From contig JBAZNZ010000003.1 of assembly GCA_041648975.1 (NCBI GenBank), positions 9,664 through 73,663 on the forward strand: a DNA stretch of 64,000 nt. The letters run 5' to 3'. Position 1 is the stretch's first letter. Every line of letters starts with the position of its first letter. Origin of the DNA: Candidatus Omnitrophota bacterium. Lineage in GTDB: Bacteria > Omnitrophota > Gorgyraeia > 2-01-FULL-45-10. The notes beneath the pieces are model-generated. The model ran no database searches. It was not told the DNA's origin and saw only the letters and a program-made list of their open reading frames with translations. The translations under genes were made by a program, and so were the position numbers. This document shows, piece after piece, positions 46,364-63,833 of this stretch.

Positions 46364-47130
46364 GCTATCTAGACGGACAGTTCGGGCTCAGGGATAAAGT
46401 GGCGCTGATTACCGGTGCCTCGGGGCAGCTCGGCCGGCGGCTGTGCGAAAGTTTCGTCAAGGCGGGGGCCAAGGTGGCAGGGCTGGACAAGGTCATATCG
46501 AAAGCGAAGACAGACGGCGTCGAATATTACAGAGCCGATATAACGAAGAAGAAGGATGTTGAGGGTGCTCTGGGGCGCGTAGCCGGGAAATACGGGACCA
46601 TAGATATAATGATCAACAACGCGGGTGTCAGCGTTTTCGAGCCTTTCGAGAAGAGGCCCGAGAAGAGCATAGACCATGTCATGGACGTGAACCTGAAAGG
46701 GACGTTCTTCTGCATCCAGTCGTACGTCAATATATTCGACAGGTGTAAGCTGAAGAAGGGCTCGATCGTCAACGTTGCCTCCTTTTACGGCGTCATATCT
46801 CCGGACTTCAGGATATATACGGACTGCAAGAGAAAGAATTCCGAGATCTACGGGGCTACCAAGGCCGGTGTCATACAGATGACTAGATATTTCGCCGTCC
46901 ACCTGGCTTCCAGGAATATCCGGGTGAATGCGGTATCTCCGGGCGGGATATACAATCCCGATAATCCGCAGGGGAAAGATTTCATAAAGAACTATTCGGC
47001 GAGGTGCCCCATGGGAAGGATGGCCAGGGACGGGGAGATCGCGGGGGCCGTCATGTACCTTTCCGGTGACGCGGCAAGCTATACGACCGGGCACAATATA
47101 GTAGTAGACGGCGGCATGAGCTGCTGGTGA
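46360..47130 (+). CDS. Short-chain dehydrogenase/reductase (classical SDR)
   Basis: ITGASGQLG, NNAGV, YGATKAG (YxxxK). Confidence 0.8.
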   Translation: MSYLDGQFGLRDKVALITGASGQLGRRLCESFVKAGAKVAGLDKVISKAKTDGVEYYRADITKKKDVEGALGRVAGKYGTIDIMINNAGVSVFEPFEKRPEKSIDHVMDVNLKGTFFCIQSYVNIFDRCKLKKGSIVNVASFYGVISPDFRIYTDCKRKNSEIYGATKAGVIQMTRYFAVHLASRNIRVNAVSPGGIYNPDNPQGKDFIKNYSARCPMGRMARDGEIAGAVMYLSGDAASYTTGHNIVVDGGMSCW

Positions 47131-47147
47131 GAGAAGGCGGGTGCGAT

Positions 47148-50948: not shown

Positions 50949-52060
50949 AGATACTTGCGGTTTCGGGAGATGTAGGCGGGGCCAGGGCCGTAATGCCGGT
51001 CCTGAAGAAGCTCTTTGACGAGAAGACGCCGTTCGTCATATCGGATAACGGTTTTCTCGGTAAAGAAGCGCCTGCCGAATGGCCGCGCGCGGTCCTGCCG
51101 GATTGGAGCGACAGGGATTCCGTGAAGGGGCTTATTGAAAAAGAGGGCGTCACACTTGTGATCTTCACTACGAGCGTCAAGGACGCTGTGCCTCTCGGCG
51201 TTGCCCGGGCCGCGCGGAACGCAGGTTTGCCTGTGATATGCATATTGGATAACTGGATGACCTACCGCAAACGCATGGAGGTCGACGGCCTGGAGACATT
51301 CCTTCCGGACGTATATGCGATGATGGACGAGCTTGCCTTTGAAGAGGCCGTAGCCGACGGCCTGCCGCCTTCGATACTGAAGGTCACAGGCCAGCCCGCA
51401 CTGGCGTCCATCGCGGAGTCCTACAGGTCGATGCGCAGAGAGGACTATGCGGACAAACTGCGTTCCTGCGGGATAATGAAGGATAAACAGCTTATAGTCT
51501 TTATCTCGGAACCCGCGGAGAAGGACCAGGGGGCGGGACCGTCATCGACGAATTTCAGGGGTTACACGGAGAAGACCGTGTTGCGGCAGTTGTGCGCCTG
51601 TTTGCAGCCGTATTCCGGCCGGATCCAGATAGGTATAGCGCCCCATCCGCGCGAAGACCAGGAGGAATTGAGCAGGTCCTGGGAGGCGTACCGGGGCGGC
51701 CTGACGGGCGGTATATTGAAAAATACAAGCGGCAGGGAATCGGTATTCCTTGCGGACGGCGTAGCGGGCATGGCATCCATACTTCTTTATGAGGCGTACC
51801 TGGTGGGCAAGCCTTCCATAAGTCTTCAGCCCGGCCTGAGACTGCCGCAGTTAGCCTTTATGAAGAAGAAGAAAGGGTGCCGCTTTCTCGACGATCCGGG
51901 ATCGTGGAAAGAGTATGTAGACGGCTGGATAGCCGATGTCAGGAAAGCGCCGGGGGCGCACAAGATCGACCCGGAGCTTGAATTTCACCTGAAGGCCTCG
52001 GACAGGATCATACGCACCATAAAGGATTCCATGAAGCTTATTAAAAAGAAGGGGGCTTGA
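50945..52060 (+). CDS. Hypothetical two-domain Rossmann-like (GT-B-like) protein, unknown specificity
   Basis: ILAVSGDVGGARAV N-terminus. Second half LIVFISEP...IAPHPRED. No clear family signature. Confidence 0.3.
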   Translation: MKILAVSGDVGGARAVMPVLKKLFDEKTPFVISDNGFLGKEAPAEWPRAVLPDWSDRDSVKGLIEKEGVTLVIFTTSVKDAVPLGVARAARNAGLPVICILDNWMTYRKRMEVDGLETFLPDVYAMMDELAFEEAVADGLPPSILKVTGQPALASIAESYRSMRREDYADKLRSCGIMKDKQLIVFISEPAEKDQGAGPSSTNFRGYTEKTVLRQLCACLQPYSGRIQIGIAPHPREDQEELSRSWEAYRGGLTGGILKNTSGRESVFLADGVAGMASILLYEAYLVGKPSISLQPGLRLPQLAFMKKKKGCRFLDDPGSWKEYVDGWIADVRKAPGAHKIDPELEFHLKASDRIIRTIKDSMKLIKKKGA

Positions 52061-52062
52061 GC

Positions 52063-52782
52063 ATGAATGTGGCGATAATACCCGCCAGAGGCGGGAGCAA
52101 GCGGGTACCAAAAAAGAATATCAAACTTTTCATAGGCAAACCGATCATAACGTATTCCCTGAAAGAGACCGTGGACAGCGGACTCTTCGATAGGGTCATA
52201 GTCTCTACCGATTCGGAAGAGATAGCGGCAATAGCCAGGAGCGCCGGGGCGGAGGTCCCGTTCATGCGCCCCGCCGAACTGTCGGACGATCATACACACA
52301 TAGCGGACGTCGTAGAACATGCGATCAAGTGGCTTAAGGCGGACGGCTGCGACGTTGAATATGTATGCTGTATATTCTGCACAGCCCCGTTCATACAGAA
52401 AAAATATCTAAAGGAAGGCCTTGAGAAGATAAGGAAGACCAAGACCGATTCGGTATTCACGGTCACCAGCTTTCCGTTCCCCATATTGCGGGGGATGAGG
52501 ATAACCGACAAAGGGACCCTCGAGATGTTCTGGCCGCAGTATGAATTCACCAGGTCCAACGACCTCGAGGAGGCATATCATGACGCGGGGCAGTTCTACT
52601 GGCTGGAGGCCGACCGCTTCCTCAAGAATAAGAGATTTTTTACGAAAGACGCCCTTCCGATAATCCTGCCCAGGTATCTTGTGCAGGACATAGATACCCC
52701 GGAGGACTGGGAGACGGCCGAGATGCTGTATGAATCCATCCAGAGAAAAGATAATAAAAAAGAGGAGGGAGTAAGAAGATGA
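52063..52782 (+). CDS. Acylneuraminate cytidylyltransferase family (PseF/LegF-like CMP-nonulosonate synthetase), second copy
   Basis: VAIIPARGGSKRVPKKNI. The start was moved from TTG 52057 to ATG 52063, which has an AAGGGGG Shine-Dalgarno. Confidence 0.8.
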   Translation: MNVAIIPARGGSKRVPKKNIKLFIGKPIITYSLKETVDSGLFDRVIVSTDSEEIAAIARSAGAEVPFMRPAELSDDHTHIADVVEHAIKWLKADGCDVEYVCCIFCTAPFIQKKYLKEGLEKIRKTKTDSVFTVTSFPFPILRGMRITDKGTLEMFWPQYEFTRSNDLEEAYHDAGQFYWLEADRFLKNKRFFTKDALPIILPRYLVQDIDTPEDWETAEMLYESIQRKDNKKEEGVRR

Positions 52783-54110
52783 AGTTGGCTATTAACGGCG
52801 GAAGCCCGGTAAGAAAGAAACTGTTCCCAGGATACAACTATATAGGCGCGGAGGAGAAAGCCGAGGTCATGAGGGTGCTCGATTCCGGAGTGCTGTCCCA
52901 GTTCCTGGGGTGCTGGCACGCCGACTTTTACGGCGGGCCCGAAGTGAGGACACTCGAAAAGGAATGGGCCGAGTATTTCGGCGCCAAGCACGCTATCTCG
53001 GTAAATTCCTGCACCTCCGGGCTGATATGCGCCGTAGGGGCCACAGGCGTGGAACCGGGGGAGGAGATAATAGTGACTCCGTACAGCATGTGCATATCCG
53101 CCGCGGCGCCCCTGTTCTACAACGCCGTCCCCGTTTTTGCCGATGTTGAGGAGGATTACTATTGCCTCGACGCCGATTCTATCGAAAAACGCATCACGCC
53201 GAGGACGCGCGCCATACTGGTCGTGGACCTTTTCGGCATGCCGTATGACGCCCAGAGGATAAACGCCATCGCGAAGAAGCACGGCCTGATAGTCATAGAG
53301 GATACCGCCCAGGCGCCCGGCGCCCTGAATAACGGCAAGTATACGGGGACGCTCGGACACATGGGAGTCCATTCGCTGAATTATCATAAGCATATCCATT
53401 CGGGCGAAGGCGGCGTCATCCTGACCAATGACGACAAGCTGGCGGAGAAGGTCCAGCTGATACGCAACCACGGGGAGGCCGTCGTCGAGAAAAAAGGAAC
53501 GAAAGATATAGTGAACATCATCGGGTATAATTTCAGGATGACGGAGATGGAGGCGGCCGTAGCGAGGTGTCAGCTCAGGAAGCTGAAGAAACTCTTATCC
53601 GATCGCCAGGACAACTGCGCCTATCTGAACGAAAAGCTCGGGCAGGTCCCCGGTATCGTCCCGACGAAGCTGAGGAAGGGATGCACGCATTCCTACTATG
53701 TCCATCCCCTGAAATATAAAGAAGAGGTCACCGGCGTGCCCCGGAACGTCTTCATAGACGCGGTCAGGGCGGAGCTCGCGCCGTTGGCGCTGCGCGAAGG
53801 CGAAGGCGTAAAGATAACGTCCGGTTACTGCAGGCCGCTGTATTTACAGCCGATATTCCAGAAGAAGATCGCTTACGGGTCCAAGGGTTGCCCGTTCACA
53901 AAACCGTGGTATGAAGGCAGCGTAAGTTATGACAAGGGAATATGCCCCACCGTCGAGCGCCTCTTCGAGAAAGAGCTGTTTATCCACGAGATGATAAGCC
54001 CCCCGATGACGAGAGAGGACCTTAACGATGTGGTCAAGGCATTCGAGAAGGTATACGAGAACAGAGAAGAGCTAATGCAGAAAGCAGCAGGAAAGGAGAC
54101 AGTTAGATGA
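52779..54110 (+). CDS. DegT-family sugar aminotransferase (PseC-like)
   Basis: SCTSGLICAV, HSLNYHKHIHSGEGG (PLP lysine). AGAGGAGGGA Shine-Dalgarno. Confidence 0.85.
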   Translation: MKLAINGGSPVRKKLFPGYNYIGAEEKAEVMRVLDSGVLSQFLGCWHADFYGGPEVRTLEKEWAEYFGAKHAISVNSCTSGLICAVGATGVEPGEEIIVTPYSMCISAAAPLFYNAVPVFADVEEDYYCLDADSIEKRITPRTRAILVVDLFGMPYDAQRINAIAKKHGLIVIEDTAQAPGALNNGKYTGTLGHMGVHSLNYHKHIHSGEGGVILTNDDKLAEKVQLIRNHGEAVVEKKGTKDIVNIIGYNFRMTEMEAAVARCQLRKLKKLLSDRQDNCAYLNEKLGQVPGIVPTKLRKGCTHSYYVHPLKYKEEVTGVPRNVFIDAVRAELAPLALREGEGVKITSGYCRPLYLQPIFQKKIAYGSKGCPFTKPWYEGSVSYDKGICPTVERLFEKELFIHEMISPPMTREDLNDVVKAFEKVYENREELMQKAAGKETVR

Positions 54111-55492
54111 AGTTGCTATTCGTGATGTATGACAATGAAGGGCCGAAAAACAGTATGCCGGTCGGGCCGTGCTACGTGGCGGCCTATGCCAAGGAGAACG
54201 GATACGGCGATATAGCCTACTACAGCCAGGATGTTTATCATTATCCGGAAGAGCATCTTACGAAGTATCTTGATGACAACCGTTTCGATGTGGTGGGCAT
54301 CGGTTTTTGCGCCGGCTATTTCCAGCTGAAAAAGATCAAGATGATATGCGACGCCATCCACAAGTCGAAACACAGACCCTTTATAGTGTTGGGCGGTCAT
54401 GGGCCGAGCCCCGTGCCGGAGTTTTACATTAAATACATGGGCGCGGATGCCACTGTTTCGGGCGACGGAGAGCTGCCGTTCCTGAATCTTGTGAAGGCGC
54501 TTGAGAACAAGACTCCTCTTAGCAAGGTAAAAGGGATATCCTACCGGGACGGCGATAAGGTGGTCGTGAACGAACGGGAAGCGGCCATAAAAGACCTGGA
54601 TAGTCTGCCGTTCCCTCTTTACGAACTCCTGCCTATGGAATATTATCTTGCCGCCAAACTGGCGGGCCAGAGCGCTACAGACCGCATGATATATCTTACG
54701 CCAAGCAGGGGATGTACGTATAATTGCAATTTCTGCCAGCGGCTTGAGCCCGGGATCCGCCTCAGGTCTCCCGGCAACATAGTAGAGGAGATAAAAAAAT
54801 ACAAGAAGGACTACAACGCGACGTTTATACATTTTGTAGATGAGCTGTTCATGTTAAGCAAGAAACGTATCTATGACCTTACGGAGGCATTTCTGAAGGC
54901 GGACCTTAATATAAAATATTTCTGCACGGGGCGCCTCAACATCGCCGATGAGGAGATACTCGGCATGATGAAACGCTCGGGTTGCGCATATATAGACTAC
55001 GGCATAGAACAGTTCGATAACGCTGCTCTCGCTGCCATGGATAAGCAGCAGACCGAGGATGATATAATCCGCGGCATAACGGCGACACAGAAGGCCGGCA
55101 TCAACATCGTATTTAATATAATATTCGGCAATATCGGGGATACGAAAAAAAGCCTTCGTAAGTCGATAGAACTGCTGAAGAAATACAATGATTACGGCCA
55201 GGTCAGGGCGATCAGGCCGGTAACGCCGTATCCGGGCTCGCCTCTTTATTATTATGCCATAGATAAGGGGCTTCTTAAGGGGCCGGAGGATTTTTACAGG
55301 AAGCATACGAATCTTGAGCTTCCGACGGTGAACTTCACCAGCATACCGGACAAAGAGTTCATAGACCTGATGTTCGAGGCTAATAAGGAAATACTTCACG
55401 ACCACTACGACCATGTAAGAGATGAGACCATTGAAACTTTCCGGAAGGTCTATTATGAGAAGGACGCGAGTTTCAGGGGGACGAGGCATTAG
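54107..55492 (+). CDS. B12-binding radical SAM protein, copy 7
   Basis: MKLLFVMYDN, SRGCTYNCNFCQRL. Confidence 0.85.
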   Translation: MKLLFVMYDNEGPKNSMPVGPCYVAAYAKENGYGDIAYYSQDVYHYPEEHLTKYLDDNRFDVVGIGFCAGYFQLKKIKMICDAIHKSKHRPFIVLGGHGPSPVPEFYIKYMGADATVSGDGELPFLNLVKALENKTPLSKVKGISYRDGDKVVVNEREAAIKDLDSLPFPLYELLPMEYYLAAKLAGQSATDRMIYLTPSRGCTYNCNFCQRLEPGIRLRSPGNIVEEIKKYKKDYNATFIHFVDELFMLSKKRIYDLTEAFLKADLNIKYFCTGRLNIADEEILGMMKRSGCAYIDYGIEQFDNAALAAMDKQQTEDDIIRGITATQKAGINIVFNIIFGNIGDTKKSLRKSIELLKKYNDYGQVRAIRPVTPYPGSPLYYYAIDKGLLKGPEDFYRKHTNLELPTVNFTSIPDKEFIDLMFEANKEILHDHYDHVRDETIETFRKVYYEKDASFRGTRH

Positions 55493-55495
55493 AAT

Positions 55496-56545
55496 ATGAA
55501 GAATAAGGCCGCGGAAAAGGAATGGAAGCAGCTACGGTATACCAGGGACCCGGACGAGATGATCGCCGGTGTAGTGGGTAAAGAGTATATGGAATACCGC
55601 AAGCGCTGGGAGCGCGCCGGCCGGTTGCAGGTGACCGGCAAATATCCGACGCATCTCGATTTCGAATTCCGGTACGGGTGTAACTTGAAATGCCCCTATT
55701 GCATACTCCAGATAGGGTCCTCGGAATTGGGCGAAAACCACCCTTATCACATCAGGAATAAGTCGCTCAGCATCACGTTCGAGAAGTTCGAGGAGATACT
55801 CAAAGAGGGTATATCGCATGGGCTTTCGTCCATTACGATAGGCGGCAATAATGAACCCCTGCTGACGCGAGATGTCGCCAGATACATAAAACGCGCCAGG
55901 GAACTGGGCATAGTAGATGTAATTATGCTTACCAACGCTACATTGCTTACGGAGAAGATCTCCGCAGAGCTGCTGGATTCCGGAATAACCAAGATATATT
56001 TCTCCCTGGACGCCATACGGCAAGAGACATACAGGATAGTGCGCAAGGGCGGCGATTTCGGTAAGGTCATGAAGAATATAGAATATTTCCTGAAACTGAA
56101 GAAAGAGAAAGGGCAGGTCCTGCCGATAACCAGGGTCTCTTTCGTAAAGAATAAGCTGAACGAGGCCGAAGCGGAAGAGTTTGCCGAGTACTGGAAAACA
56201 AAGGTCGATTTCCTTTGCTTCCAGGCGTTCGTGACGCCGGCCTACGGGTATTCGGGCTATGAGACGCTCCGGAAAAAGTTCCAGATGGAGAACAAGGAGC
56301 TGAAAGAACCGGGCGTCTGCAGCCAGCCTTACCAGCGCCTGACTATTTACAGCGACGGGTCCGTGCATCCCTGCTGCCGGTGGTACGGATCGACCATAAT
56401 CCTGGGAAATATTAATTCAGAGAGTATCTATGATATATGGAATTCCGCAAAGATGAAAAAATTCAGGCTTGCGGTAAATGACAGCGTTCCGGATAATGTG
56501 CCCAAGGAATGCCGGATATGCAGGAAGACTATCTTTGGTGAATAG
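55496..56545 (+). CDS. Radical SAM protein with C-terminal SPASM-like domain, second copy
   Basis: YGCNLKCPYCILQ. C-terminal CSQPY...HPCCRWYG...CRICRK. Confidence 0.75.
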   Translation: MKNKAAEKEWKQLRYTRDPDEMIAGVVGKEYMEYRKRWERAGRLQVTGKYPTHLDFEFRYGCNLKCPYCILQIGSSELGENHPYHIRNKSLSITFEKFEEILKEGISHGLSSITIGGNNEPLLTRDVARYIKRARELGIVDVIMLTNATLLTEKISAELLDSGITKIYFSLDAIRQETYRIVRKGGDFGKVMKNIEYFLKLKKEKGQVLPITRVSFVKNKLNEAEAEEFAEYWKTKVDFLCFQAFVTPAYGYSGYETLRKKFQMENKELKEPGVCSQPYQRLTIYSDGSVHPCCRWYGSTIILGNINSESIYDIWNSAKMKKFRLAVNDSVPDNVPKECRICRKTIFGE

Positions 56546-56548: not shown

Positions 56549-58033
56549 ATGGCCACAGCGGAACATAAGATAAAAAATATATTGTTCTACCTTATACCTT
56601 CTTTCATAGGCAACGCGCTGCCTTTTATCACGCTTCCTATAATAACGCGTTTCCTGTCGCCGCAGGATTTCGGCATATCGGCTCTTGCTATGAGCACGAC
56701 GCTGATCATAGCGAATATCCTGGTATGCAATGTCGATACGGCGGCGTACCGGTACTATTTTGAATACAGGAAGAACGCGAAAGAAGTGGCGGGATTGATA
56801 AATACGAGCCTGGCGTATATTTTACTGGTCGGCGTCGTCTCCATTCCGATCGTCTATTTTGCCAGTAACGCTATTTCGAGGCTTATTATAGGTTCTGCGG
56901 AATATGCGCAGGCTTTATTCATTTCGTACATAAGCGCCTGCCTTTCCGTGCTGGTAAATTTTTATCTGATGTTCTACCGGAATATGGAAAAGGCCAAAGA
57001 TTTCTCTTATTTAAAGACAATCCAAACGCTTATAGGCACGATACTTACTCTGGTATTGATCATAAAATTCAGAATGGGTTATATGGGGCTCATATACGCG
57101 ACGTTCGGATCGTTTCTTATCGCGTTCCTGGTAGTTTCCGCGCGGTTCATGATAGATTTTCCTTTTCATTTCAGGGCTAAGATGCTTATCGATAACCTGA
57201 AATACGGGATACCGCTTTTGCCTAATATGTTCAGCGGCTCCATATACCAGTTCTTTGATAAATACATGCTGCAGAGGATCGTCTCGCTGTCGAGCACAGG
57301 CATATTCAGTATAGCGCAGAACATATCTACGAGGCTCTTCACGTTCATGACCGCGGTCCAATCGACGTTCGAGCCGATATTCATGAAAGACATGTTCGAC
57401 CGCGGCGCCGAAGGGGCGAGATCGGTCGGAAGGAATTTCACGGTATTTACATACATATCGCTGTCCGTCATCCTCGGCACTATATTGTTCGGGGAGGAGA
57501 TAATCTATATCCTGGCCCCGAGCAGCTATTATGGGGCTATAAATGTTTTCATGATCCTCCTGGGCGCTATATCAATGCAGACATTCGGCAAGATCGTCGG
57601 GCCGCAGCTGGCATATCCTAAAAAAGCCTATCTGTCGTTCCCCATAAGCCTTGCGGGGCTGGCAGTCAACATATCGCTGAACCTGTTCCTTATACCGAAG
57701 TGGGGGGCGTCCGGCGCCGCGTTCGCTACATTCGTTACCATCGCTTTGAGTAATGCCATATCGGTCTTCATAGCGCAAAAATTCTACAAAATAGAGTATG
57801 AGAAATTTTTCCTGCTGCTTATATATTCGAATGTTTTTATCAGCACATTCCTGCTGATATATATGAGGCTGATTGACGCCCCGATCCTGCTTAAGTATGG
57901 GTTGAAGATAGCGTCGTTGGCCGCTTACGCTTATGCCGGAGTAAGGGCCCGGATAATTACAAAAGGCAACATCAGGATCGTTATGAACATATTAAGATTA
58001 AGAACCTCTACTGAAAAATATGTAGAGATATAG
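56549..58033 (+). CDS. Wzx-type flippase (MOP superfamily), second copy
   Basis: PFITLPIITRFLSPQDFG N-terminal signature. About 14 transmembrane helices. Confidence 0.7.
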   Translation: MATAEHKIKNILFYLIPSFIGNALPFITLPIITRFLSPQDFGISALAMSTTLIIANILVCNVDTAAYRYYFEYRKNAKEVAGLINTSLAYILLVGVVSIPIVYFASNAISRLIIGSAEYAQALFISYISACLSVLVNFYLMFYRNMEKAKDFSYLKTIQTLIGTILTLVLIIKFRMGYMGLIYATFGSFLIAFLVVSARFMIDFPFHFRAKMLIDNLKYGIPLLPNMFSGSIYQFFDKYMLQRIVSLSSTGIFSIAQNISTRLFTFMTAVQSTFEPIFMKDMFDRGAEGARSVGRNFTVFTYISLSVILGTILFGEEIIYILAPSSYYGAINVFMILLGAISMQTFGKIVGPQLAYPKKAYLSFPISLAGLAVNISLNLFLIPKWGASGAAFATFVTIALSNAISVFIAQKFYKIEYEKFFLLLIYSNVFISTFLLIYMRLIDAPILLKYGLKIASLAAYAYAGVRARIITKGNIRIVMNILRLRTSTEKYVEI

Positions 58034-58045: not shown

Positions 58046-58816
58046 ATGATAGACCTGAAAGCCAGGTTAAAAGCCAATAAGCTTACTATAGGATCCTGGA
58101 TCACGCTTGCGTCCCCGGCCATACCGGAGATCATGGCCCGGTGCGGGTTCGACTGGCTCACAGTCGATATGGAACATTCGGCTATAACCATCGAAATTGC
58201 CCAGGACCTTATACGGATCATCGGGCTGTCAGGCGTCGTGCCTCTAGTGCGCGTCGGCAAGAACGACCCTAATCTAATAAAGAGGGTCATGGATGCCGGT
58301 GCGCACGGCGTGATCGTGCCTATGGTGAATTCGCCGGAAGATGCCGAGAGGGCGGTCAGCGCCGTCAAATATCCGCCTGTCGGGAAGAGGGGCGTCGGCC
58401 TTGCGCGGGCGCAGGGGTACGGCCTTGAATTCGGGAAGTATAAAAACTGGGTCAATAAAAAAAGCGTAGTTGTCGTCCAGGTAGAGCATATAGACGCGGT
58501 CGAAAGCCTAGAAGGCATACTCGCGACCCCGGGGGTGGATGCTTTTATTGTGGGACCGTATGACCTGTCGGCTTCGCTGGGAAGACCTGGGGAATTCGAA
58601 CATCCCGACGTCAAGGCGGCGCTTAAAGAGGTGATTTCTGTATCGAAACGGATGAATAAATGCGCCGGGTTTCACGTCATCCCGCCGGACAGCCGGCTGC
58701 TTGCTAAAAAATCCGAAGAAGGCTATAGGTTCTTAGGGTTCAGCCTCGATACGCTCTTTTTGGGCCGGTCATGCATGGATGAAACAACCGCCGCGCGCAG
58801 GAAGATGAGGAGATAA
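58046..58816 (+). CDS. HpcH/HpaI-family class II (pyruvate-specific) aldolase
   Basis: GSWITLASP, DWLTVDMEHS, GVIVPMVNS, VGKRGVG. AGAAAGGA Shine-Dalgarno. Confidence 0.8.
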   Translation: MIDLKARLKANKLTIGSWITLASPAIPEIMARCGFDWLTVDMEHSAITIEIAQDLIRIIGLSGVVPLVRVGKNDPNLIKRVMDAGAHGVIVPMVNSPEDAERAVSAVKYPPVGKRGVGLARAQGYGLEFGKYKNWVNKKSVVVVQVEHIDAVESLEGILATPGVDAFIVGPYDLSASLGRPGEFEHPDVKAALKEVISVSKRMNKCAGFHVIPPDSRLLAKKSEEGYRFLGFSLDTLFLGRSCMDETTAARRKMRR

Positions 58817-58819
58817 GAG

Positions 58820-59611
58820 ATGAATATCGCAGCTATAATACCCGCCAGGATGGCGTCGACAAGATACCCCGGAAAGCCCCTTGCCAGGATACTCGGCATG
58901 GAGATGATAGGCCATGTCTATTTCCGCAGCCGCATGTCCAAGCTCCTTAACGGTATATATATAGCCACATGCGATAGCGAGGTGAGTGATTACGCGAAAT
59001 CGATAGGCGCGCCGTACATCATGACAAAGGATACTCATGAGAGGGCGTCCGATCGCGCGGCGGAGGCTATGCTTAAGATCGAGGCGGATACCGGAAAGAA
59101 GCTGGACATAGTCGTGATGATACAGGGCGACGAGCCGATGATTGCGCCGGAAATGATAGACGAGGCCGTGAGGCCGCTTGTCGAAGACAGCTCGATACTC
59201 GTGTCGAACTCCATGGCCGATATCATGACCAGGCAGGAGCAGGAGGACCCGAACGAGGTGAAGGTCGTTGTCGATAATGACGGCTTTGCGTTATACTTTT
59301 CGCGCGAGCCGATACCGTCATGGAAGAAAGGCGCGAAGGCCGTGCCGATGCGCAAACAGGTATGTATAATACCTTTCAGGAGGGATTTTCTTTTGAAGTT
59401 CAACGGGCTTAAGCAGACGCCGCTCGAGATCGTCGAGTCGGTCGACATGCTGAGGGTCCTCGAAAACGGATATAAGGTAAAGATGGTCCCGACGAAATAT
59501 GTGACGTACAGCGTCGATACGCCGGAGGATCTAAGGACCGTCGAAGAGGCCATGAAGGGCGATAAGCTCCTGGCCGGGTATTTCCGGGCCGCAAAGGCAG
59601 GGAGGGGGTAG
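58820..59611 (+). CDS. KdsB-family cytidylyltransferase (CMP-3-deoxy-ulosonate synthetase)
   Basis: AAIIPARMASTRYPGKPL (KdsB IIPARxxSTRxPGKPL signature), VVMIQGDEP. Confidence 0.8.
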   Translation: MNIAAIIPARMASTRYPGKPLARILGMEMIGHVYFRSRMSKLLNGIYIATCDSEVSDYAKSIGAPYIMTKDTHERASDRAAEAMLKIEADTGKKLDIVVMIQGDEPMIAPEMIDEAVRPLVEDSSILVSNSMADIMTRQEQEDPNEVKVVVDNDGFALYFSREPIPSWKKGAKAVPMRKQVCIIPFRRDFLLKFNGLKQTPLEIVESVDMLRVLENGYKVKMVPTKYVTYSVDTPEDLRTVEEAMKGDKLLAGYFRAAKAGRG

Positions 59612-59615: not shown

Positions 59616-60056
59616 ATGGAAAAGGTCTCCGCGCTGAAAATAGAGGACTTTAAGGAAGGCAAGAGCTATTCGTTCGAAAAGACCGTGACGGCCGCGGACA
59701 TCGACGTCTTTGCCGCTATAACGGGCGATATCAGTCCTCTGCATATGAGCGATGAGTTTGCCCGGGCTAGAGGGTTCAAAGGCAGGGTCGCGCACGGCGT
59801 GCTCCTCGCGGGATTTGTGTCGAAGATTATAGGCGTGGACTTTCCCGGCGAGAACTGCCTCCTACAGACCATGAGCCTGAAATTTTCCACGCCATGTTAC
59901 GCCGGAGACACATTGCGTATCACCGCGTCCGTCAGCCAGGTTTCAACCGCCGCAGGCGCAGTGGTCCTTGATATAGTGATAGAAAATGCGGCAGACCGCG
60001 TAACTGTGGCAAAAGGGAAAGCGCAGGTAGGTTTTACGAAGACGACAGGAAAATAA
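59616..60056 (+). CDS. MaoC-like (R)-specific enoyl-CoA/ACP hydratase, hot-dog fold
   Basis: ITGDISPLHMSDEFA, RVAHGVL. Confidence 0.8.
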   Translation: MEKVSALKIEDFKEGKSYSFEKTVTAADIDVFAAITGDISPLHMSDEFARARGFKGRVAHGVLLAGFVSKIIGVDFPGENCLLQTMSLKFSTPCYAGDTLRITASVSQVSTAAGAVVLDIVIENAADRVTVAKGKAQVGFTKTTGK

Positions 60057-61693
60057 TGAAGGATATAGAGTTCATTTTTATAGCGCAGTCGGAGACGATC
60101 GATTACGGAGGGTATTCAAAGCTGCCCGCCGACAGGATCGAACTTTACAGGGATCTCGTCTATCCGCGCATGGTGTATTTTAAGGGAGCCTTCCGTTCGC
60201 ATCTCGACCTGATAAATTATTTTACGGAAGGAAAATTCTTTAACGAGGCAGGATACGCTGAGCGCCGTAAGCTTCTTAACATGTGGAACCTGCCCGGCAT
60301 GAACAGCCTCCATCTTGCGAACTACCTCGCGCAATACGGCATTGCGGCTAAGGTTATAAATAATTTCGACGCGGAATGGGATATATTCCGCGACGCGTAC
60401 GGATCCGCGAAACGCCCTCCGATCGTCGGCATTTCGACTACGTTCCATCTTTCTTATATGGAGGCTAAGCGTATCGCAGGAGAGATAAGGAAGGAATATC
60501 CGGACGCTGTCATAGCGCTGGGCGGCGCATTCGTGAACGAGCAGTCCATAAACGGGGAACTCAGGGACATGGAAAAGCCTATGCGCAAATACGGCATAAA
60601 TTACATACTCCATGCGTTCAATTCCGAGGCCGATCTGAGGGACCTTGTCCTGGCCTCAAGAAAAGGCGCGCTGCCGGGCAGCGTTAACAACCTCGCCTAT
60701 CTCGGCGGCGGCGATCTCAAGTCCTGCGCATTCGGGACGACGGGGACGAAATGGAACGACCCTGTCCTGGAGGATGATCCCGAGTTATGGGATAAGCTGG
60801 ATATGAAGTTCGTGAACCATACCGTCCAGACGAGGACTTCGTACGGCTGCCCGTTCTCCTGCGCGTTCTGCTCATATCCGAAGACGGCGAAAAAATTCTG
60901 CCAGATGGACATCGATGCTGTCGAAAAACAGGTAAATGGGCTTCTGAAGATTCCGGGCGTCGATAAGATAATATTCGTCGACGATACATTTAACGCGTCT
61001 CCTGCCCGTTTTAAGGACATATGCCGCAGTCTCGGCAAATATAATTTTGAATGGTTCGCCTTCCTGCGGGCCAACCTTATAGATGAGGAAACGGCAAGGC
61101 TGATGGTCAGGTCCGGATGCAGGGGCGTCTATCTCGGTATAGAATCGGCCGATGACGCTGTGCTGAAGAATATGAACAAGAAGGCCACGCACTCTCAATG
61201 TCTCGAGGGCATAAGGTTTCTGAAGAAATACGGCGTAACTACCGTGGCCGCGTTTATAATAGGTTTTCCGGGCGAGACGGAAGAGACCCTTAAGGAAGAT
61301 GTAGAGTTCATAGAGTCGAGCGGGGTCGATTTTTACACCCTGAAGGAGTTTTATTACATGAAGCATACGGCCGTATACGAGGATCGCGGCCGGTTCGGCC
61401 TGTCGGGCATTGGGAACAAGTGGCGGCACGATACGATGGATTACAAAAAGGCGCAAGCTGCGAAGATAGATATGTTCAGGTCAATCAAAAACAGCGTATA
61501 TGTCGATGCGGATACGAGCCTGTGGTATATAGCTTACCTTTATGACCAGGGATACGATATAAGCCGGACAGCGGCGGCACAGCGCCGTATAAACGGCATC
61601 GCGGCCCGGCAGATAGACGGTATGACGGATGATAACGACAGGCTCTTTAAAGAGCTAGGCGAAATATTATCGAAAGAGGCGGTGCGCAAATGA
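60056..61693 (+). CDS. B12-binding radical SAM protein, copy 8
   Basis: TSYGCPFSCAFCSYP. TAATG overlap with the upstream gene. Confidence 0.85.
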   Translation: MKDIEFIFIAQSETIDYGGYSKLPADRIELYRDLVYPRMVYFKGAFRSHLDLINYFTEGKFFNEAGYAERRKLLNMWNLPGMNSLHLANYLAQYGIAAKVINNFDAEWDIFRDAYGSAKRPPIVGISTTFHLSYMEAKRIAGEIRKEYPDAVIALGGAFVNEQSINGELRDMEKPMRKYGINYILHAFNSEADLRDLVLASRKGALPGSVNNLAYLGGGDLKSCAFGTTGTKWNDPVLEDDPELWDKLDMKFVNHTVQTRTSYGCPFSCAFCSYPKTAKKFCQMDIDAVEKQVNGLLKIPGVDKIIFVDDTFNASPARFKDICRSLGKYNFEWFAFLRANLIDEETARLMVRSGCRGVYLGIESADDAVLKNMNKKATHSQCLEGIRFLKKYGVTTVAAFIIGFPGETEETLKEDVEFIESSGVDFYTLKEFYYMKHTAVYEDRGRFGLSGIGNKWRHDTMDYKKAQAAKIDMFRSIKNSVYVDADTSLWYIAYLYDQGYDISRTAAAQRRINGIAARQIDGMTDDNDRLFKELGEILSKEAVRK

Positions 61694-63573
61694 ACGGTCA
61701 GGATAAAAAAGAAGCCTTGAGGAAGGTCAAAGAGGACATCAAACGCTCCGAATATAAGAGCGCATTTTCGCGCCTCGATCTCATAACCAGCCACGACGAC
61801 GATTTTGTCCTGCAATCGAGGTATGCCGCCCTTTTCAGATCGATCAGGACGGAAGGCCTCGATCTTAAAAAGATCCGTGTAGCGGTGCTTGCGACCAGCA
61901 CCGTCAGCCATTTCAACGATATATTAAGGTACTGGCTGGCGAAAGAAGGATTCGACGCCGACATATACGAATCGGAGTATGATACTGTCAGGCAAACGAT
62001 AATGGACAAGAACAGCCCCCTCTACGACTTCGGACCGGACATAGCCGTGATATTTACGAATTACAGGGATGTCGCGTTCGATGTGCCGCCGGGCAGCTCC
62101 CGCGAGGAAATTAAAAGCGCGGTTTCGTCGGCGGTCCGCGATGTAGCGTCCCTCTGGGACGCGCTTAACAGGAATTCGAAATGCCATATAATACAGAATA
62201 ACGCGGACCTGCCGTACCACCGCACTTTCGGAAACTTCGAAGGCGCGGCACCATGGACGAAGATCAATGTCCTGAGGCTGTTCAACCTTGAGCTCGCCAG
62301 CGCGGCCGTGCCCGGCGTGACCATATTCGATCTCGATTTCGTATCGTCGGCGTACGGTAAACGCAAATGGCATGACGCCGAGTATTGGTACCATTCCAAA
62401 CACGCTTTCAGCCTGGATGCGACAGGGCTGGTCGCACACGACCTGTCTAAGGTGATAGGCTCGATAAAAGGGCGGGCAAAAAAATGCCTCGTCCTCGACC
62501 TCGACAATACCATCTGGGGCGGAGTAATAGGCGATGACGGTATCGAGGGCATCGCGCTCGGCAGCGGTCCCGACGGCGAAGCATTCGCGGATTTCCAGCG
62601 GTATCTCGCGCTCCTGAAGAGACGCGGGGTCATACTTGCCGTATGCAGCAAGAACGACGAGGAGACCGCCAAAGAGCCGTTCCTCAAACACCCGGACATG
62701 CACCTTAAGCTGGAGGACATGGTCGTATTTAAAGCGAACTGGGATGATAAGCCGTCCAATATAAGGCAGATAGCGTCAGAGCTGAACATAGGGCTCGACG
62801 CAATAGTCTTCGTCGACGACAATCCGGCCGAGCGGGAGCTCGTGAGAAGCACTCTTCCGATGGTGAGCGTCCCGGAACTGCCGCCGGACCCGGCCGGTTA
62901 CGTCCACGCGTTGACAAGCCACTCATATTTCGAGACGGTCTCATTCTCCGACGAGGATAGGGCTCGGACCGAATATTATAAAAGTAATGTCACGCGCCTG
63001 GGGTTTCAAAAGCAGTTTACCGATCTCGCCGATTATCTGAAGAGCCTTGGCATGGAGATGGCGGTATGGACATTCGACGATTTCAACCTCCCCCGTATAT
63101 CGCAGCTTGTGAATAAGTCGAACCAGTTCCATCTTACTACGACCAGATACACCGAACAGGAACTGAGATCGATGCGGGACGACCCCAAGAGGATCTGCCG
63201 GTCATTCAGGCTTAGGGACCGTTTCGGCGACAACGGCCTGATATCGGCGGTAATACTTGAGAAGAAGACGCCCGGCGAGGCGGTGATAGATACCTGGGTC
63301 ATGAGCTGCCGCGTCCTGTCGAGAAGCTGCGAGGAATTTATCTGCCGGGAGATGATAACCCTGGCAGAAGAGGCAGGTGTGAAGAGGATAACGGGTAAGT
63401 ATATACCGACGAAGAAGAACAGGCTCGTCAGCGGATTATACGAAAGACTCGGCTTCCGTACCGCAGGTCAGGAAGCCGAGGCGTTTCTATGGTCGCTCGA
63501 TATCGGCCGGGGGACAACGCTTCCGGAGACATTCATAAAGAGGGCCGTTGAAACAGATAGTGTAAGGATGTAA
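61690..63573 (+). CDS. FkbH-like HAD-superfamily (subfamily IIIC) phosphatase/acyltransferase with C-terminal GNAT-like domain
   Basis: CLVLDLDNTIWGG HAD motif I, AVCSKND, VFVDDNP. Then a C-terminal acyltransferase-like domain, as in FkbH/OzmB glyceryl-ACP synthases. Confidence 0.75.
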   Translation: MNGQDKKEALRKVKEDIKRSEYKSAFSRLDLITSHDDDFVLQSRYAALFRSIRTEGLDLKKIRVAVLATSTVSHFNDILRYWLAKEGFDADIYESEYDTVRQTIMDKNSPLYDFGPDIAVIFTNYRDVAFDVPPGSSREEIKSAVSSAVRDVASLWDALNRNSKCHIIQNNADLPYHRTFGNFEGAAPWTKINVLRLFNLELASAAVPGVTIFDLDFVSSAYGKRKWHDAEYWYHSKHAFSLDATGLVAHDLSKVIGSIKGRAKKCLVLDLDNTIWGGVIGDDGIEGIALGSGPDGEAFADFQRYLALLKRRGVILAVCSKNDEETAKEPFLKHPDMHLKLEDMVVFKANWDDKPSNIRQIASELNIGLDAIVFVDDNPAERELVRSTLPMVSVPELPPDPAGYVHALTSHSYFETVSFSDEDRARTEYYKSNVTRLGFQKQFTDLADYLKSLGMEMAVWTFDDFNLPRISQLVNKSNQFHLTTTRYTEQELRSMRDDPKRICRSFRLRDRFGDNGLISAVILEKKTPGEAVIDTWVMSCRVLSRSCEEFICREMITLAEEAGVKRITGKYIPTKKNRLVSGLYERLGFRTAGQEAEAFLWSLDIGRGTTLPETFIKRAVETDSVRM

Positions 63574-63581
63574 GGAGGGCT

Positions 63582-63833
63582 ATGACCGGCAAGAGGGATT
63601 CTATAAAGGAGCGCCTGAACGGGATTTTCAGGGAAGTCTTTGACGACGATACGATCGAGATATCGGATACTATGACAGCGAAGGATATCGCCGAGTGGGA
63701 TTCGCTGAATCATATAGTACTCGTAGTCGCCGTGGAGAAAGAGTTCGGCCTGAAGCTTAACGCCGCAGAGGTCGGGAAGCTGGAGAATGTCGGATCGATG
63801 CTGACGCTCCTCGAAGGCCGCGCTACAAAATAA
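63582..63833 (+). CDS. Acyl carrier protein (phosphopantetheine attachment DSL motif)
   Basis: 83 aa, IAEWDSLNHIVLVVAVE. Perfect TAAGGAGGG Shine-Dalgarno, 6-nt spacer. Confidence 0.8.
   Translation: MTGKRDSIKERLNGIFREVFDDDTIEISDTMTAKDIAEWDSLNHIVLVVAVEKEFGLKLNAAEVGKLENVGSMLTLLEGRATK

Follow-up and report, generated by a model that had tools for sequence, protein, structure and literature searches.

We favor, with moderate confidence, the view that a class II pyruvate aldolase and the product of the gene directly after it, a KdsB-like cytidylyltransferase (CT), carry out two steps of a self-contained, PEP-independent route to a CMP-activated 2-ulosonic acid other than Kdo, which would be the glycosyl donor for a surface glycan. 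The two genes lie in a 64,000-nucleotide stretch of Omnitrophota DNA, the whole of which we call the window. Our evidence consists of family memberships, intact catalytic residues, conserved gene linkage, cassettes without PEP-dependent synthases and a CT whose sugar pocket is distinct; what we infer is which way the aldolase runs, what it acts on, in which order the steps follow and what a PGDH-like dehydrogenase does. A preliminary description of the window had suggested that the aldolase replaces a PEP-dependent synthase and feeds the CT, yielding a third ulosonic acid. That remains the best-supported reading and gains considerable weight from comparative genomics, with the genes recurring in glycan loci of LPS-free lineages without KdsA and, mostly, without NeuB; its two-gene view, however, misses a cassette of five to six genes.

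The aldolase and CT genes and their neighbors

The genes around the pair are as follows.
56549-58033, + strand: Wzx-type flippase (cluster c18; PF01943, PF13440), directly upstream of the aldolase
58046-58816, + strand: class II (metal-dependent) pyruvate aldolase, HpcH/HpaI family (cluster c0; PF03328, E=9.6e-35)
58820-59611, + strand: KdsB-like CT of the distinct clade c2 (NCBIfam NF009905; PF02348 CTP_transf_3, E=2e-41)
59616-63833, + strand: inserted acyl module, whole block, from profile matches; outside the conserved cassette
59616-60056, + strand: MaoC dehydratase of the acyl module
60056-61693, + strand: PhpK-like B12 radical SAM protein of the acyl module
61690-63573, + strand: FkbH of the acyl module
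63582-63833, + strand: ACP of the acyl module

The adjoining class II HpcH/HpaI aldolase (256 aa) and KdsB-family CT (263 aa, N-terminus MNIAAIIPARMASTRYPGKPL) were confirmed, with coordinates exactly as first described. Only 3 nt separate the aldolase stop codon (TAA) from the CT start codon (ATG), and GAGGAG lies within the 3’ end of the aldolase gene. The 12-nt gap between the flippase and aldolase genes carries an AAAGGA ribosome-binding site, and in a tally of upstream neighbors Wzx family c18 also preceded the aldolase in 7 other loci.

The pair had been placed between Wzx and an FkbH-ACP module. Both flanks are as described, but FkbH-ACP is an insertion and not a conserved neighbor. The acyl module runs on past the window end with a DltB-like MBOAT and then a 352-aa unknown, and the PGDH-like dehydrogenase, SDR, cyclase and HAD genes of the source genome come after it, at window-equivalent positions ~66355-68900 (12774-15507 of locus L083). 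Elsewhere the 2-hydroxyacid dehydrogenase comes directly after the CT. This MaoC/rSAM/FkbH/ACP/MBOAT block has been inserted into the cassette and is specific to the source genome.

The pair belongs to a cassette conserved across two domains

The cassette consists of the aldolase, the CT, a PGDH-like D-2-hydroxyacid dehydrogenase, an SDR, a PF04199 cyclase and a HAD phosphatase. We found 472 relatives and analyzed the best 80 loci, chosen by aldolase similarity and subjected to crude ORF calling. Co-occurrence of the aldolase-kdsB pair in other genomes, which had been put forward as a check, was readily found: an orthologous KdsB-like CT (43-71% identity) lies on the same strand within ~6 kb downstream of the aldolase in 57 of the best 80 loci. 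In another 19 of these 80 (type B), a CT of a second, NeuA-like clade, 59-70% identical across domains, sits directly upstream of the aldolase. Aldolase-CT adjacency is kept in 76 of the best 80 loci, with tight or overlapping gene junctions, and is far beyond chance. Two different branches of the ulosonate-CT family have been recruited to the same cassette, and the aldolase lineage co-varies with the CT type.

Among the 44 loci with full flanks, the CT was present in 40, the 2-hydroxyacid dehydrogenase in 37, a phosphatase in 30 and the SDR in 29. HAD and IMPase phosphatases were mutually exclusive in this set, which indicates non-orthologous replacement of a required step. NeuB was encoded within 10 kb in 14/44 full-flank loci and absent in 30/44; it was absent within that distance in 12/14 type-B loci. 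Type-C loci carry in addition a GmhA-type ketose-phosphate isomerase, the counterpart of KdsD. An SAM methyltransferase (c7) was found in 24/73 loci and a Maf-like gene in 13/19 type-B loci, and Wzx, GTs and ABC transporters lie near cassette loci. For the Maf/MptE-like profile PF01973, family c35 scored 43.5 bits against a cutoff of 34.6; family c30, at 25.1 bits, is under the cutoff and shares the G-x-G-P-S motif. As a contrast to these arrangements, a Pseudomonas plasmid has kdsA, a kdsB-kdsC fusion and kpsF together.

One over-long homologue (P0074) was considered as evidence of fusion and rejected; it joins the aldolase to only the last ~90 CT residues, is probably a deletion or chimera, and is uninformative.

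Carriers number in the hundreds, are mostly uncultured and include archaea, Patescibacteria, Dehalococcoidia and a Bacillaceae isolate, with a Spirochaetia MAG (L040) also among them; archaea, Patescibacteria, Dehalococcoidia and Bacillaceae lack LPS. In the cultured Methanococcoides sp. AM1, the cassette (8044-13972 of locus L093) is three genes from AglB/STT3; in Ferdinandcohnia sp. Marseille-Q9671 (9324-14479 of locus L094) it lies inside a Wzx/Wzy locus, with an FAA_hydrolase as the hydrolase. Hydrosulfovibrio ferrireducens CB1MN (locus L070) is a further carrier. Two Dehalococcoidia loci (L012 and L033) have a phosphonate module directly after the cassette (LicD, a fused CT-PEP mutase, phosphonopyruvate decarboxylase and Fe-ADH). 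Phage and plasmid collections yielded no members of the c2 clade, the plasmid matches being canonical kdsB genes of at most 40% identity. A full-text literature search returned no description of the aldolase-CT pair or of the cassette.

The aldolase retains the catalytic residues of HpaI but lies outside the catabolic families

The PF03328 HpcH_HpaI profile covers aldolase residues 15-232, the full TIM-barrel domain, at 120 bits against a cutoff of 25, and the nearest solved structures are HpaI, YfaU and GarL (E ~1e-41 to 1e-43). All of the HpaI catalytic and metal residues (D42, E44, H45, R70, Q147, E149 and D175) are present in the window aldolase and each is kept in at least 71/74 family members, with E44, H45, R70, E149 and D175 found in 74/74. 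Because the fold and catalytic residues are identical to those of the class II 2-keto-3-deoxy-acid aldolases HpaI, GarL and RhmA (YfaU), to which identity is ~40%, pyruvate-enolate chemistry is expected. Those enzymes are catabolic and encoded in degradation operons, whereas the cassette subfamily is found in glycan-biosynthesis operons and the window aldolase falls under all of their NCBIfam equivalog cutoffs (HpaI, 184.7 versus 368.8; GarL, 171.8 versus 393 and 170.1 versus 406.75; RhmA, 151 versus 441). The family also has specific residues of its own, the invariant Y172 (Ala174 in HpaI) and H210, and Q123 in 73/74 members. No degradation operon (hpa, gar or rhm genes) was found around the aldolase in the window, where its neighbors are the flippase, CTs, GTs and NulO genes, nor in 80 related loci or two cultured carriers.

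We propose that this enzyme serves the cassette as its ‘synthase’ and forms the C-C bond. N-acetylneuraminate lyase (NanA) and Kdo aldolase (EC 4.1.2.23) are likewise pyruvate-dependent aldolases; they act reversibly on ulosonic acids and are used synthetically in vitro. Physiologically, however, both are catabolic, and we know of no biosynthetic operon that links either of them to a CT; NanA moreover belongs to another family and works by class I (Schiff-base) chemistry, whereas the cassette aldolase is class II.

The CT has an altered sugar pocket

The CT passes the KdsB-named subfamily models NF009905 (304 bits versus a cutoff of 255) and NF003952 (272 versus 193), but misses the KdsB equivalog cutoffs (TIGR00466, 146.6 versus 155.2; NF003948, 175.9 versus 281). 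Its nearest solved relative is E. coli K-CKS/KpsU (1gq9, E=2e-38). Clade c2 is monophyletic and separate from true KdsB, with a median identity of 37% and at most 42%. The CTP and Mg residues R10, R15, K19, Q98, D100 and D235 (E. coli/Klebsiella numbering) are common to six true KdsB proteins and at least 85% of the c2 family. Seven positions invariant in the six true KdsB are replaced in c2 (D50 by C, R164 by K, H181 by Q, Y185 by I, Y187 by F, E210 by D and Q211 by M); one of them belongs to a published contact pair (Q98/Y185) and the other six are known from conservation only, so that the argument draws on this pair and on conservation patterns rather than on a structure. In KdsB, Q98 and Y185 bind the C5-OH of Kdo, and 5-deoxy-Kdo is inactive (PMC12199768). 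Isoleucine takes the place of Y185 in 39/52 c2 members, and Q98 is kept. In c2 numbering the seven replacing residues are C51, K169, Q180, I184, F186, D209 and M210, candidates for lining the sugar site.

The preliminary description had envisaged a Kdo- or Kdn-like product. Judged from sequence, Kdo or a sugar close to it is an unlikely product: the CT falls in a separate clade, seven KdsB-invariant positions are replaced, among them the tyrosine ligand of the Kdo C5-OH, and the protein misses the KdsB equivalog cutoffs. We propose that the CT activates, as its CMP derivative, the ulosonic acid made by the aldolase.

The window has three CTs and two NeuB synthases

Two further CTs, each part of a pathway with its own PEP-dependent synthase, are encoded upstream.
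36486-37118, + strand: NeuA/LegF-like CT, Leg/Neu-type pathway (PF02348, 98.7 bits)
37067-38164, + strand: NeuB-family synthase with SAF domain, Leg/Neu-type pathway (PF03102, 335.8 bits, plus SAF)
47127-47999, + strand: NeuB-family synthase (PseI-like), PEP-dependent, Pse-type pathway (PF03102, 245.8 bits)
52057-52782, + strand: PseF (CMP-pseudaminic acid synthetase), second CT (TIGR03584, 318.8 bits versus a cutoff of 205.7)

The tally is three CTs and two NeuB synthases. KdsA had been said to be absent here, and our searches agree: profiles for DAHP_synth_1/KdsA, KdsC, KdsD and PEP mutase matched no + strand ORF of the window, and tblastn with bona fide KdsA found nothing in the window or in 85 loci totaling 1.39 Mb. 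The window also has no homologue of c35 or c30, no other Maf-like or TagF-like transferase and no GxGPS motif, which counts against a sugar-donor product.

A proposed pathway and its relation to known routes

In the pathway that we propose, the aldolase would turn pyruvate, or a donor of the hydroxypyruvate type, into a Mg2+-bound enolate that attacks an aldehyde to give a 4-hydroxy-2-oxo acid. The acceptor is probably an aldose phosphate or an acid-aldehyde out of central metabolism, and this aldol step would replace the PEP condensation of KdsA or NeuB. A phosphatase, HAD-IA in most loci and IMPase-family elsewhere, would remove phosphate from the intermediate much as KdsC does in the Kdo pathway. 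The CT would then let the anomeric C2-OH of the cyclized keto acid attack CTP, forming the CMP-sugar, and release of PPi would draw the reversible aldol step forward. The SDR, together with the PF04199 hydrolase/cyclase and O-methyl- or O-acetyltransferases where present, may tailor the sugar; a Maf-like (PF01973) or TagF/KpsS-like GT-B enzyme would transfer it, and Wzx/ABC or AglB systems would export or attach the glycan. The PGDH-like dehydrogenase may supply a 2-oxo-acid donor or acceptor, for example (phospho)hydroxypyruvate from 3-phosphoglycerate.

The closest comparison is the CMP-Kdo pathway (KdsD, KdsA, KdsC and KdsB/KpsU). The CTs are homologous, with the same fold and CTP/Mg2+ residues; a phosphatase step is common to both, some cassette variants have an SIS-type ketose-phosphate isomerase, and the proposed product is likewise a CMP-activated alpha-keto sugar acid for surface glycans. 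The routes differ in the C-C bond-forming enzyme (a class II pyruvate aldolase of HpcH fold versus the PEP-dependent KdsA), in the phosphatase (HAD-IA or IMPase versus the HAD-IIIA KdsC), in the additional PGDH-like dehydrogenase, SDR and cyclase genes of the cassette, in its altered CT sugar pocket (Y185I, H181Q, E210D, Q211M and others), and in its occurrence in LPS-free archaea, CPR bacteria, Chloroflexota and Firmicutes.

The nonulosonic acid pathways (NeuB/PseI/LegI with NeuA/PseF/LegF, or Kdn-9-P synthase, phosphatase and CMP-Kdn synthetase) share with the cassette a PF02348 CT and CMP activation of a 2-keto-3-deoxy acid. Type-B cassettes resemble them further in having NeuA-like CTs and Maf-like (PF01973) putative transferases, and in their placement in flagellin, S-layer or N-glycan loci. 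Unlike these pathways, the cassette core has neither a NeuB-family PEP-dependent synthase nor UDP-/GDP-hexosamine tailoring genes, and its precursors seem to come from central metabolism.

A partly parallel arrangement is found in an uncharacterized polysaccharide locus on a Leisingera caerulea plasmid, which encodes an HMGL-like aldolase, a KdsB-like CT and a HAD phosphatase. Its CT is sister to clade c2 and has four c2-type substitutions (K164, Q181, C183 and F187), but unlike c2 it keeps Y185 and E210. The Leisingera aldolase has a DRE-TIM/HMGL fold unrelated to HpcH, and the operon lacks the PGDH-like dehydrogenase and the SDR.

Alternative explanations

Several observations sit uneasily with a sugar donor. 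The preliminary description had condensed an aldose with pyruvate, and that simple scheme gives no obvious role to the most tightly linked partner, the PGDH-like dehydrogenase; reduction at C2 by this enzyme would leave no anomeric center for CMP activation. An aldolase, an SDR and a hydrolase (PF04199, or FAA_hydrolase in Ferdinandcohnia) also resemble, by analogy, a set for non-phosphorylative catabolism of deoxy-sugar acids. The HpcH-family enzymes characterized so far work in catabolism, and an aldol equilibrium favors synthesis less than PEP condensation does. The dehydrogenase would find a natural role, as would the phosphatase and methyltransferase c7, if the cassette made not a sugar donor but a 3-deoxy-aldonic (polyhydroxy-acyl) side chain: the aldolase would join pyruvate to glyceraldehyde(-3-P), reduction of the keto group at C2 would fall to the D-2-hydroxyacid dehydrogenase, and the acid, once dephosphorylated and O-methylated, would end up on an amino sugar or a nonulosonic acid. 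The 2-methoxy-4,5,6-trihydroxyhexanoyl-Pse of the Treponema denticola flagellin glycan is a precedent (PMC13439194), the window encodes Pse- and Leg-type pathways, and a Spirochaetia MAG carries the cassette. We nevertheless consider this scheme unlikely. Almost every locus has a CT of the ulosonate-activating family, recruited from two branches, and the reaction of such CTs requires an anomeric C2-OH; no enzyme for activating a carboxylate is conserved (an AMP-binding motif occurs in 1/1292 neighbor proteins); most loci, including that of Methanococcoides with its AglB, have neither NeuB nor a nonulosonic acid pathway in the surrounding 10 kb; Maf-like transferases lie within the operon; and the best 120 matches to the Spirochaetia aldolase include no Treponema protein.

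The CT might activate some other compound, such as a small hydroxy acid or a phosphonate-related molecule, with the aldolase and dehydrogenase merely supplying or recycling a 2-oxo-acid precursor. The PhpK-like radical SAM gene near the CT in the window, the two Dehalococcoidia loci with a phosphonate module and the 3-phosphoglycerate/hydroxypyruvate chemistry suggested by a PGDH-like enzyme all lean this way. A general phosphonate explanation was rejected, however, as the window and most loci have no PEP mutase, and the rSAM/FkbH block is an insertion specific to the source genome. To our knowledge KdsB/NeuA-type CTs act only on the anomeric hydroxyl of ulosonic acids, and a CMP-monoester at a non-anomeric hydroxyl has no known transfer chemistry, which leaves this proposal improbable. 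We judge it quite improbable that the CT is a genuine CMP-Kdo synthetase served by a Kdo aldolase running in reverse, from D-arabinose and pyruvate to Kdo for capsule or O-antigen. Kdo aldolase is a known enzyme activity, NCBIfam names NF009905 3-deoxy-manno-octulosonate cytidylyltransferase, and the capsule-specific K-CKS is the nearest solved relative; yet the missed equivalog cutoffs, the replaced pocket positions and the separate clade all speak otherwise, as does the presence of this CT in archaea, CPR bacteria, Dehalococcoidia and Bacillaceae, and the dehydrogenase, SDR, cyclase and phosphatase would be left without explanation. That all characterized close relatives (HpaI, GarL and RhmA/YfaU) are catabolic speaks for a catabolic aldolase, degrading hydroxy acids or deoxy-sugar acids, whose position beside the CT is incidental. 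Such an explanation is strongly disfavored and would be very improbable given the adjacency conserved over two domains, the tight junctions and the scores below every catabolic equivalog cutoff, and given polysaccharide or N-glycosylation loci devoid of catabolic dehydratases, kinases and uptake transporters.

Implications for acidic sugars on microbial surfaces

We know of no established route to Kdo, sialic, legionaminic or pseudaminic acid or Kdn that does not use a PEP-dependent synthase, and genome surveys for ‘sialic-acid-like’ acidic sugars search for NeuB or KdsA. An aldolase-based cassette, if our reading of it as a route to a CMP-activated ulosonic acid is true, escapes such surveys. 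We see a roughly even chance that the cassette represents a previously unrecognized PEP-independent logic for CMP-activated ulosonic acids, in which a class II pyruvate aldolase takes the place of a KdsA/NeuB-type synthase in assembling a new acidic sugar out of central metabolites, and dedicated KdsB-like or NeuA-like CT clades activate it for N-glycans, S-layer glycans or capsules, across hundreds of lineages, archaeal as well as bacterial, among them CPR bacteria, Dehalococcoidia, anammox Planctomycetes, Omnitrophota, Hadarchaeia and methanogens.

Untargeted mass spectrometry has revealed CMP-linked alpha-keto acids without an assigned pathway (SugarBase preprint), and the cassette offers concrete candidate genes for them. 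The same reading would correct a systematic annotation error, the NF009905 ‘KdsB’ name in LPS-free organisms, and thousands of ‘3-deoxy-manno-octulosonate cytidylyltransferase’ annotations in carrier lineages would be misnamed. It would also provide, in the aldolase and the CT, a two-enzyme module with which CMP-sugar analogues could be made without PEP, and would mean that a new class of sugar is present on the surfaces of major uncultured lineages and in archaeal N-glycans.

The aldolase and its cytidylyltransferase partner

The preliminary description had proposed that an HpcH/HpaI-family aldolase and a KdsB-type cytidylyltransferase (CT) form an aldolase-based route to a third ulosonic acid, Kdo- or Kdn-like. 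Both genes were recovered as exact plus-strand open reading frames.

Genes and gene sets in the window (coordinates, strand, description)
36486-37118 and 37067-38164, +, CT and NeuB of a Leg/Neu-type set
47127-47999 and 52057-52782, +, NeuB and PseF of a Pse-type set
58046-58816, +, aldolase, 256 aa; PF03328 HpcH_HpaI, E=9.6e-35
58820-59611, +, KdsB-like CT, 263 aa; PF02348, E=2e-41
59616-63833, continuing into 10266-12777 of the source-genome locus fetched with flanks (L083), inserted acyl block that separates the KdsB-like CT from the other cassette genes

The translational adjacency of aldolase and CT was borne out: the gap is 3 nt, and a Shine-Dalgarno-like GAGGAG lies within the 3' end of the aldolase gene, which itself starts 12 nt after the end of a Wzx flippase gene. 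The solved structures nearest the aldolase are HpaI, YfaU and GarL (E about 1e-41 to 1e-43). The aldolase keeps every residue that class II pyruvate aldolases use for catalysis and metal binding (HpaI D42, E44, H45, R70, Q147, E149 and D175); none of the seven falls below 71 of 74 family members, and five occur in all 74. The family also carries its own signature, with Y172 (Ala174 in HpaI) and H210 invariant and Q123 present in 73 of 74, and the aldolase falls well short of the HpaI, GarL and RhmA equivalog cutoffs. From the retained residues and these scores, we predict a competent pyruvate-type aldolase that is no orthologue of any characterised catabolic enzyme. In one JGI metagenome protein (P0074, 337 aa), an aldolase of the family runs in frame into the final ~90 residues of a clade CT and no more of it, with the motifs QVCIIPF and SIDMLR among them; a deletion or a chimeric assembly probably accounts for it, and not a functional fusion.

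Assignment of the CT to the KdsB family held at one level and failed at another. It exceeds the cutoff of NF009905 (304 bits; cutoff 255), a KdsB-named NCBI HMM that already covers this clade and names it CMP-Kdo synthetase by homology, and among solved structures the capsule CMP-Kdo synthetase K-CKS (1gq9) is nearest to it, but neither KdsB equivalog model was reached (TIGR00466, 146.6 against 155.2; NF003948, 175.9 against 281). We compared 52 family members with six genuine KdsB/KpsU proteins from Gammaproteobacteria, Bacteroidota and Fusobacteriota. Both groups have the residues for nucleotide and Mg2+ (R10, R15, K19, Q98-G-D100-E-P and D235), and the family has fixed substitutions at seven positions where true KdsB does not vary (D50C, R164K, H181Q, Y185I, Y187F, E210D and Q211M). 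In a model from the E. coli KdsB structure with CTP and 2-deoxy-Kdo, Q98 and Y185 hydrogen-bond the Kdo C5 hydroxyl, and 5-deoxy-Kdo is no KdsB substrate (PMC12199768); for D50, R164, H181, Y187, E210 and Q211, conservation suggests a sugar-site role. The clade is monophyletic in a neighbour-joining tree, with median identity of 59% within it and 37% (maximum 42%) to true KdsB, and the best matches to the CT among 72,556 plasmids were canonical kdsB at no more than 40% identity. Given the missed equivalog models, the substituted positions and the separate clade, we dropped the assignment as a CMP-Kdo synthetase; the enzyme most likely acts like one on a different sugar.

A conserved cassette across genomes

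Close relatives of the aldolase, 64-73% identical, are very numerous among uncultured bacteria and archaea. When one genome per species was scanned with their alignment, at least 472 encoding loci were obtained, the best 80 of which were taken with 10-kb flanks. Recurrence of the pair in other genomes, which the preliminary description had marked for checking, was evident: 57 of the 80 have a CT orthologue (43-71% identity by tblastn). It lies 0-6 kb downstream in the same orientation, mostly next to the aldolase or with one gene between them. In a further 19 (type B), the gene immediately before the aldolase encodes a CT of another clade, in the NeuA/PseF branch, that is itself tightly conserved, its members being 59-70% identical among a methanogen, a Bacillaceae isolate and Chloroflexota; the other four loci are broken off or short of flank beside the aldolase. 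Recurrent partners were defined by clustering all neighbouring ORFs and annotating representatives.

Recurrent partners of the aldolase (family handle in brackets)
PGDH-like D-2-hydroxyacid dehydrogenase (c1)
Extended SDR (c3)
HAD-IA phosphatase (c5)
PF04199 cyclase/hydrolase (c14)
SAM or FkbM methyltransferases; hexapeptide acyltransferase
Type C variant: Gfo/Idh/MocA oxidoreductase, GmhA-type phosphoheptose isomerase, IMPase-family phosphatase

Forty-four loci have full flanks (4 kb or more upstream and 8 kb or more downstream). Of these, 40 contain a CT, 37 the dehydrogenase, 29 the SDR and 30 a phosphatase (HAD in 23, IMPase in 7, never both); NeuB occurs in only 14. Cassette genes frequently overlap by a few bases.

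Two variants extend this content. In 6-8 loci (families c16 and c26; L021 12777-14598, L076, L030), a 3-dehydroquinate synthase (DHQS) homologue (E=1e-52 to H. pylori DHQS) and a FabG-type SDR lie beside the aldolase and CT, with a GmhA-like isomerase. Since DAHP, the natural DHQS substrate, is itself a phosphorylated 3-deoxy-2-ulosonic acid, this variant might carbocyclise the aldolase product or a heptulose phosphate. In two Dehalococcoidia/Chloroflexota MAGs (L012 7657-12260; L033 13226-17833), the genes directly after the cassette encode LicD, a Fom1-like fusion of cytidylyltransferase and PEP mutase, phosphonopyruvate decarboxylase and Fe-ADH; they form a module for phosphonate (HEP/AEP-type) decoration, possibly of the same glycan.

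The source genome contains the whole cassette set. Beyond the window end (L083) lie a DltB-like MBOAT gene, a 352-aa unknown, a 2-hydroxyacid dehydrogenase, an SDR, a cyclase and, truncated where the contig stops, a HAD gene. As the dehydrogenase directly follows the CT in other genomes, we read the intervening MaoC, PhpK-like radical SAM, FkbH, ACP and MBOAT block as an insertion; the pair had been placed between Wzx and an FkbH-ACP module, and Wzx is indeed upstream, but FkbH-ACP belongs to the insertion rather than being a true neighbour. Its FkbH is of the glyceryl-ACP-forming type (TIGR01686, 312 bits) and is accompanied by a small ACP; the MBOAT scores 167 bits, under cutoff, with TIGR04091, the B12 radical SAM enzyme resembles the PhpK family (377 bits against a cutoff of 600), and a MaoC dehydratase and the 352-aa unknown complete the block. 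This content suggests a Dlt-like O-acylation system with an unusual loader, transferring a modified glyceryl-type acyl group to a glycan extracytoplasmically.

Glycan genes of the window

Annotation of every substantial plus-strand ORF showed the window, which derives from a Candidatus Omnitrophota MAG, to be one very large glycan locus, whose genes also occur on GCA_028715235.1 contig JAQUSE010000006. Besides the Leg/Neu- and Pse-type sets, it holds many glycosyltransferases, two Wzx-type flippases and ten radical SAM genes. Eight of the latter are B12-binding (5462-6943, 13860-15398, 20486-23191, 24254-25681, 29191-30654, 31418-32830, 54107-55492 and 60056-61693), that at 20486-23191 (901 aa) being fused to a GT4/GT1 glycosyltransferase; the other two are at 12775-13851 and 55496-56545. 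Such density in one polysaccharide locus suggests extensive C-methylation or other radical tailoring of sugars. The Pse-type set opens with a gene (45596-46363) matching the RiPP-modifying MbnB/TglH/ChrH family (PF05114, E=1.6e-9; DUF692-type TIM barrel), an odd location for that family. Three ORFs between or inside the two sets (42450-43664, 404 aa; 43666-45633, 655 aa; 50945-52060, 371 aa) match no Pfam family and may encode transferases or tailoring enzymes; the 404-aa ORF has homologues at 32-36% identity in three cassette loci (L020, L024, L057). No transferase for the cassette product was found within the window.

The reported lack of KdsA was upheld, and KdsC, KdsD and PEP mutase were likewise missing from the annotated plus-strand ORFs; tblastn with a genuine KdsA query, taken from a Pseudomonas plasmid, found no match in the window. 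The window therefore has three ulosonate-type CTs and only two PEP-dependent synthases.

A proposed aldolase-built, CMP-activated sugar

A sugar built by the aldolase and activated with CMP is the best reading of the cassette, and we consider it somewhat probable. The part of the original proposal that keeps its support is a third CMP-activated acid made without a PEP synthase; Kdo, or a closely Kdo-like acid, is unlikely to be that sugar, given the substituted CT positions. The CT belongs to a family that activates 2-keto sugar acids at their anomeric hydroxyl, and essentially every adequately flanked locus encodes a member of it. Two separate branches of this family have been recruited to one cassette, and aldolase lineage co-varies with CT type. 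Most loci have no other enzyme able to make the CT substrate: NeuB is missing from 30 of the 44 full-flank loci and, among type-B loci, from 12 of 14, and no KdsA occurs anywhere in the 1.39 Mb examined. That two unrelated families fill the phosphatase role points to a required dephosphorylation of an intermediate, resembling KdsC acting on Kdo-8-P; the ketose-phosphate isomerase of type C loci similarly recalls KdsD.

The cassette is set in glycan-assembly loci. It follows Wzx in the window and lies amid Bac_transf, WecG, Wzy and Wzx genes in a Gram-positive Ferdinandcohnia isolate. The cassette of Methanococcoides sp. AM1, a cultured methanogen, runs from CT through a Maf-like gene, aldolase, dehydrogenase, SDR and cyclase to HAD and lies three genes upstream of the oligosaccharyltransferase AglB/STT3 (L093 16191-18647), which predicts an unreported acidic sugar in its N-glycan; this locus has two paralogous Maf-like genes (5348-6616 and 8721-9998). 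A Maf-like family matching PF01973 (MptE-like), which we take to be the domain of Maf flagellin transferases, occurs in 13 of 19 type-B loci, often wedged between CT and aldolase, and TagF/KpsS-like GT-B proteins occur in 21 of 73 loci; both are putative CMP-sugar transferases. Carriers include Hadarchaeia, Methanoperedens, Thermoplasmatales, Patescibacteria/Saccharibacteria, Dehalococcoidia and Bacillaceae, which lack LPS; their 'KdsB' therefore does not serve lipid A-core synthesis.

The tightest-linked partner, the PGDH-like dehydrogenase, does not fit a simple scheme of aldose phosphate plus pyruvate. It may make a 2-oxo-acid donor or acceptor, for example (phospho)hydroxypyruvate from 3-phosphoglycerate, with the phosphatase acting afterwards, or may instead work on the second hydroxy-acid end of an ulosaric acid. 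The main rival reading has it reduce the aldol product at C2 to a 3-deoxy-aldonic acid destined to be an acyl substituent. Once 2-O-methylated, such an acid would be exactly the 2-methoxy-4,5,6-trihydroxyhexanoyl group carried by a Pse-type sugar on T. denticola flagellin (PMC13439194), and methyltransferases are common in the cassette; however, the CT is nearly universal, most loci lack a nonulosonic acid pathway to acylate, and no carboxylate-activating enzyme is conserved, an AMP-binding motif appearing in only 1 of 1292 neighbours. A caution is that an SDR together with a hydrolase (PF04199; in Ferdinandcohnia, FAA_hydrolase) is also reminiscent of sugar-acid catabolism of the non-phosphorylative kind.

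Relation to known systems

To our knowledge, all established ulosonic acid pathways use PEP-dependent synthases; NanA and Kdo aldolase are pyruvate aldolases that act on ulosonic acids but are treated as catabolic. A full-text literature search found no description of the aldolase-CT pairing or the cassette. A 2026 preprint on untargeted nucleotide-sugar profiling describes CMP-linked alpha-keto acids with no assigned pathway, and ulosonic acids as known only CMP-activated.

A plasmid of the cultured roseobacter Leisingera caerulea (NZ_CP081095.1, 72274-76333; L091 12275-16334) offers an independent parallel to this reading. Within an ABC-transporter-type polysaccharide locus it has an operon for a 536-aa protein with an HMGL-like aldolase domain, a KdsB-like CT, a HAD hydrolase and a hypothetical protein of 331 aa. 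Its aldolase has the HMGL fold, unrelated to HpcH, and its CT, sister to the clade described here, has four of the clade's substitutions; the operon may represent a second, convergent way of making a CMP-sugar acid with an aldolase. In contrast, the mobilizable plasmid pL21564-1 of Pseudomonas sp. TMW 2.1634 (L092 126-3249) encodes every gene of a canonical capsule-type Kdo set, with kdsA, kpsF and a 428-aa product in which KdsB is joined to a KdsC-like HAD domain.

Strong comparative-genomic evidence supports the cassette as a predicted CMP-ulosonate biosynthesis with a different logic of C-C bond formation and a new CT clade. A widespread PEP-independent route would surprise specialists, and its cultured carriers make it directly testable.
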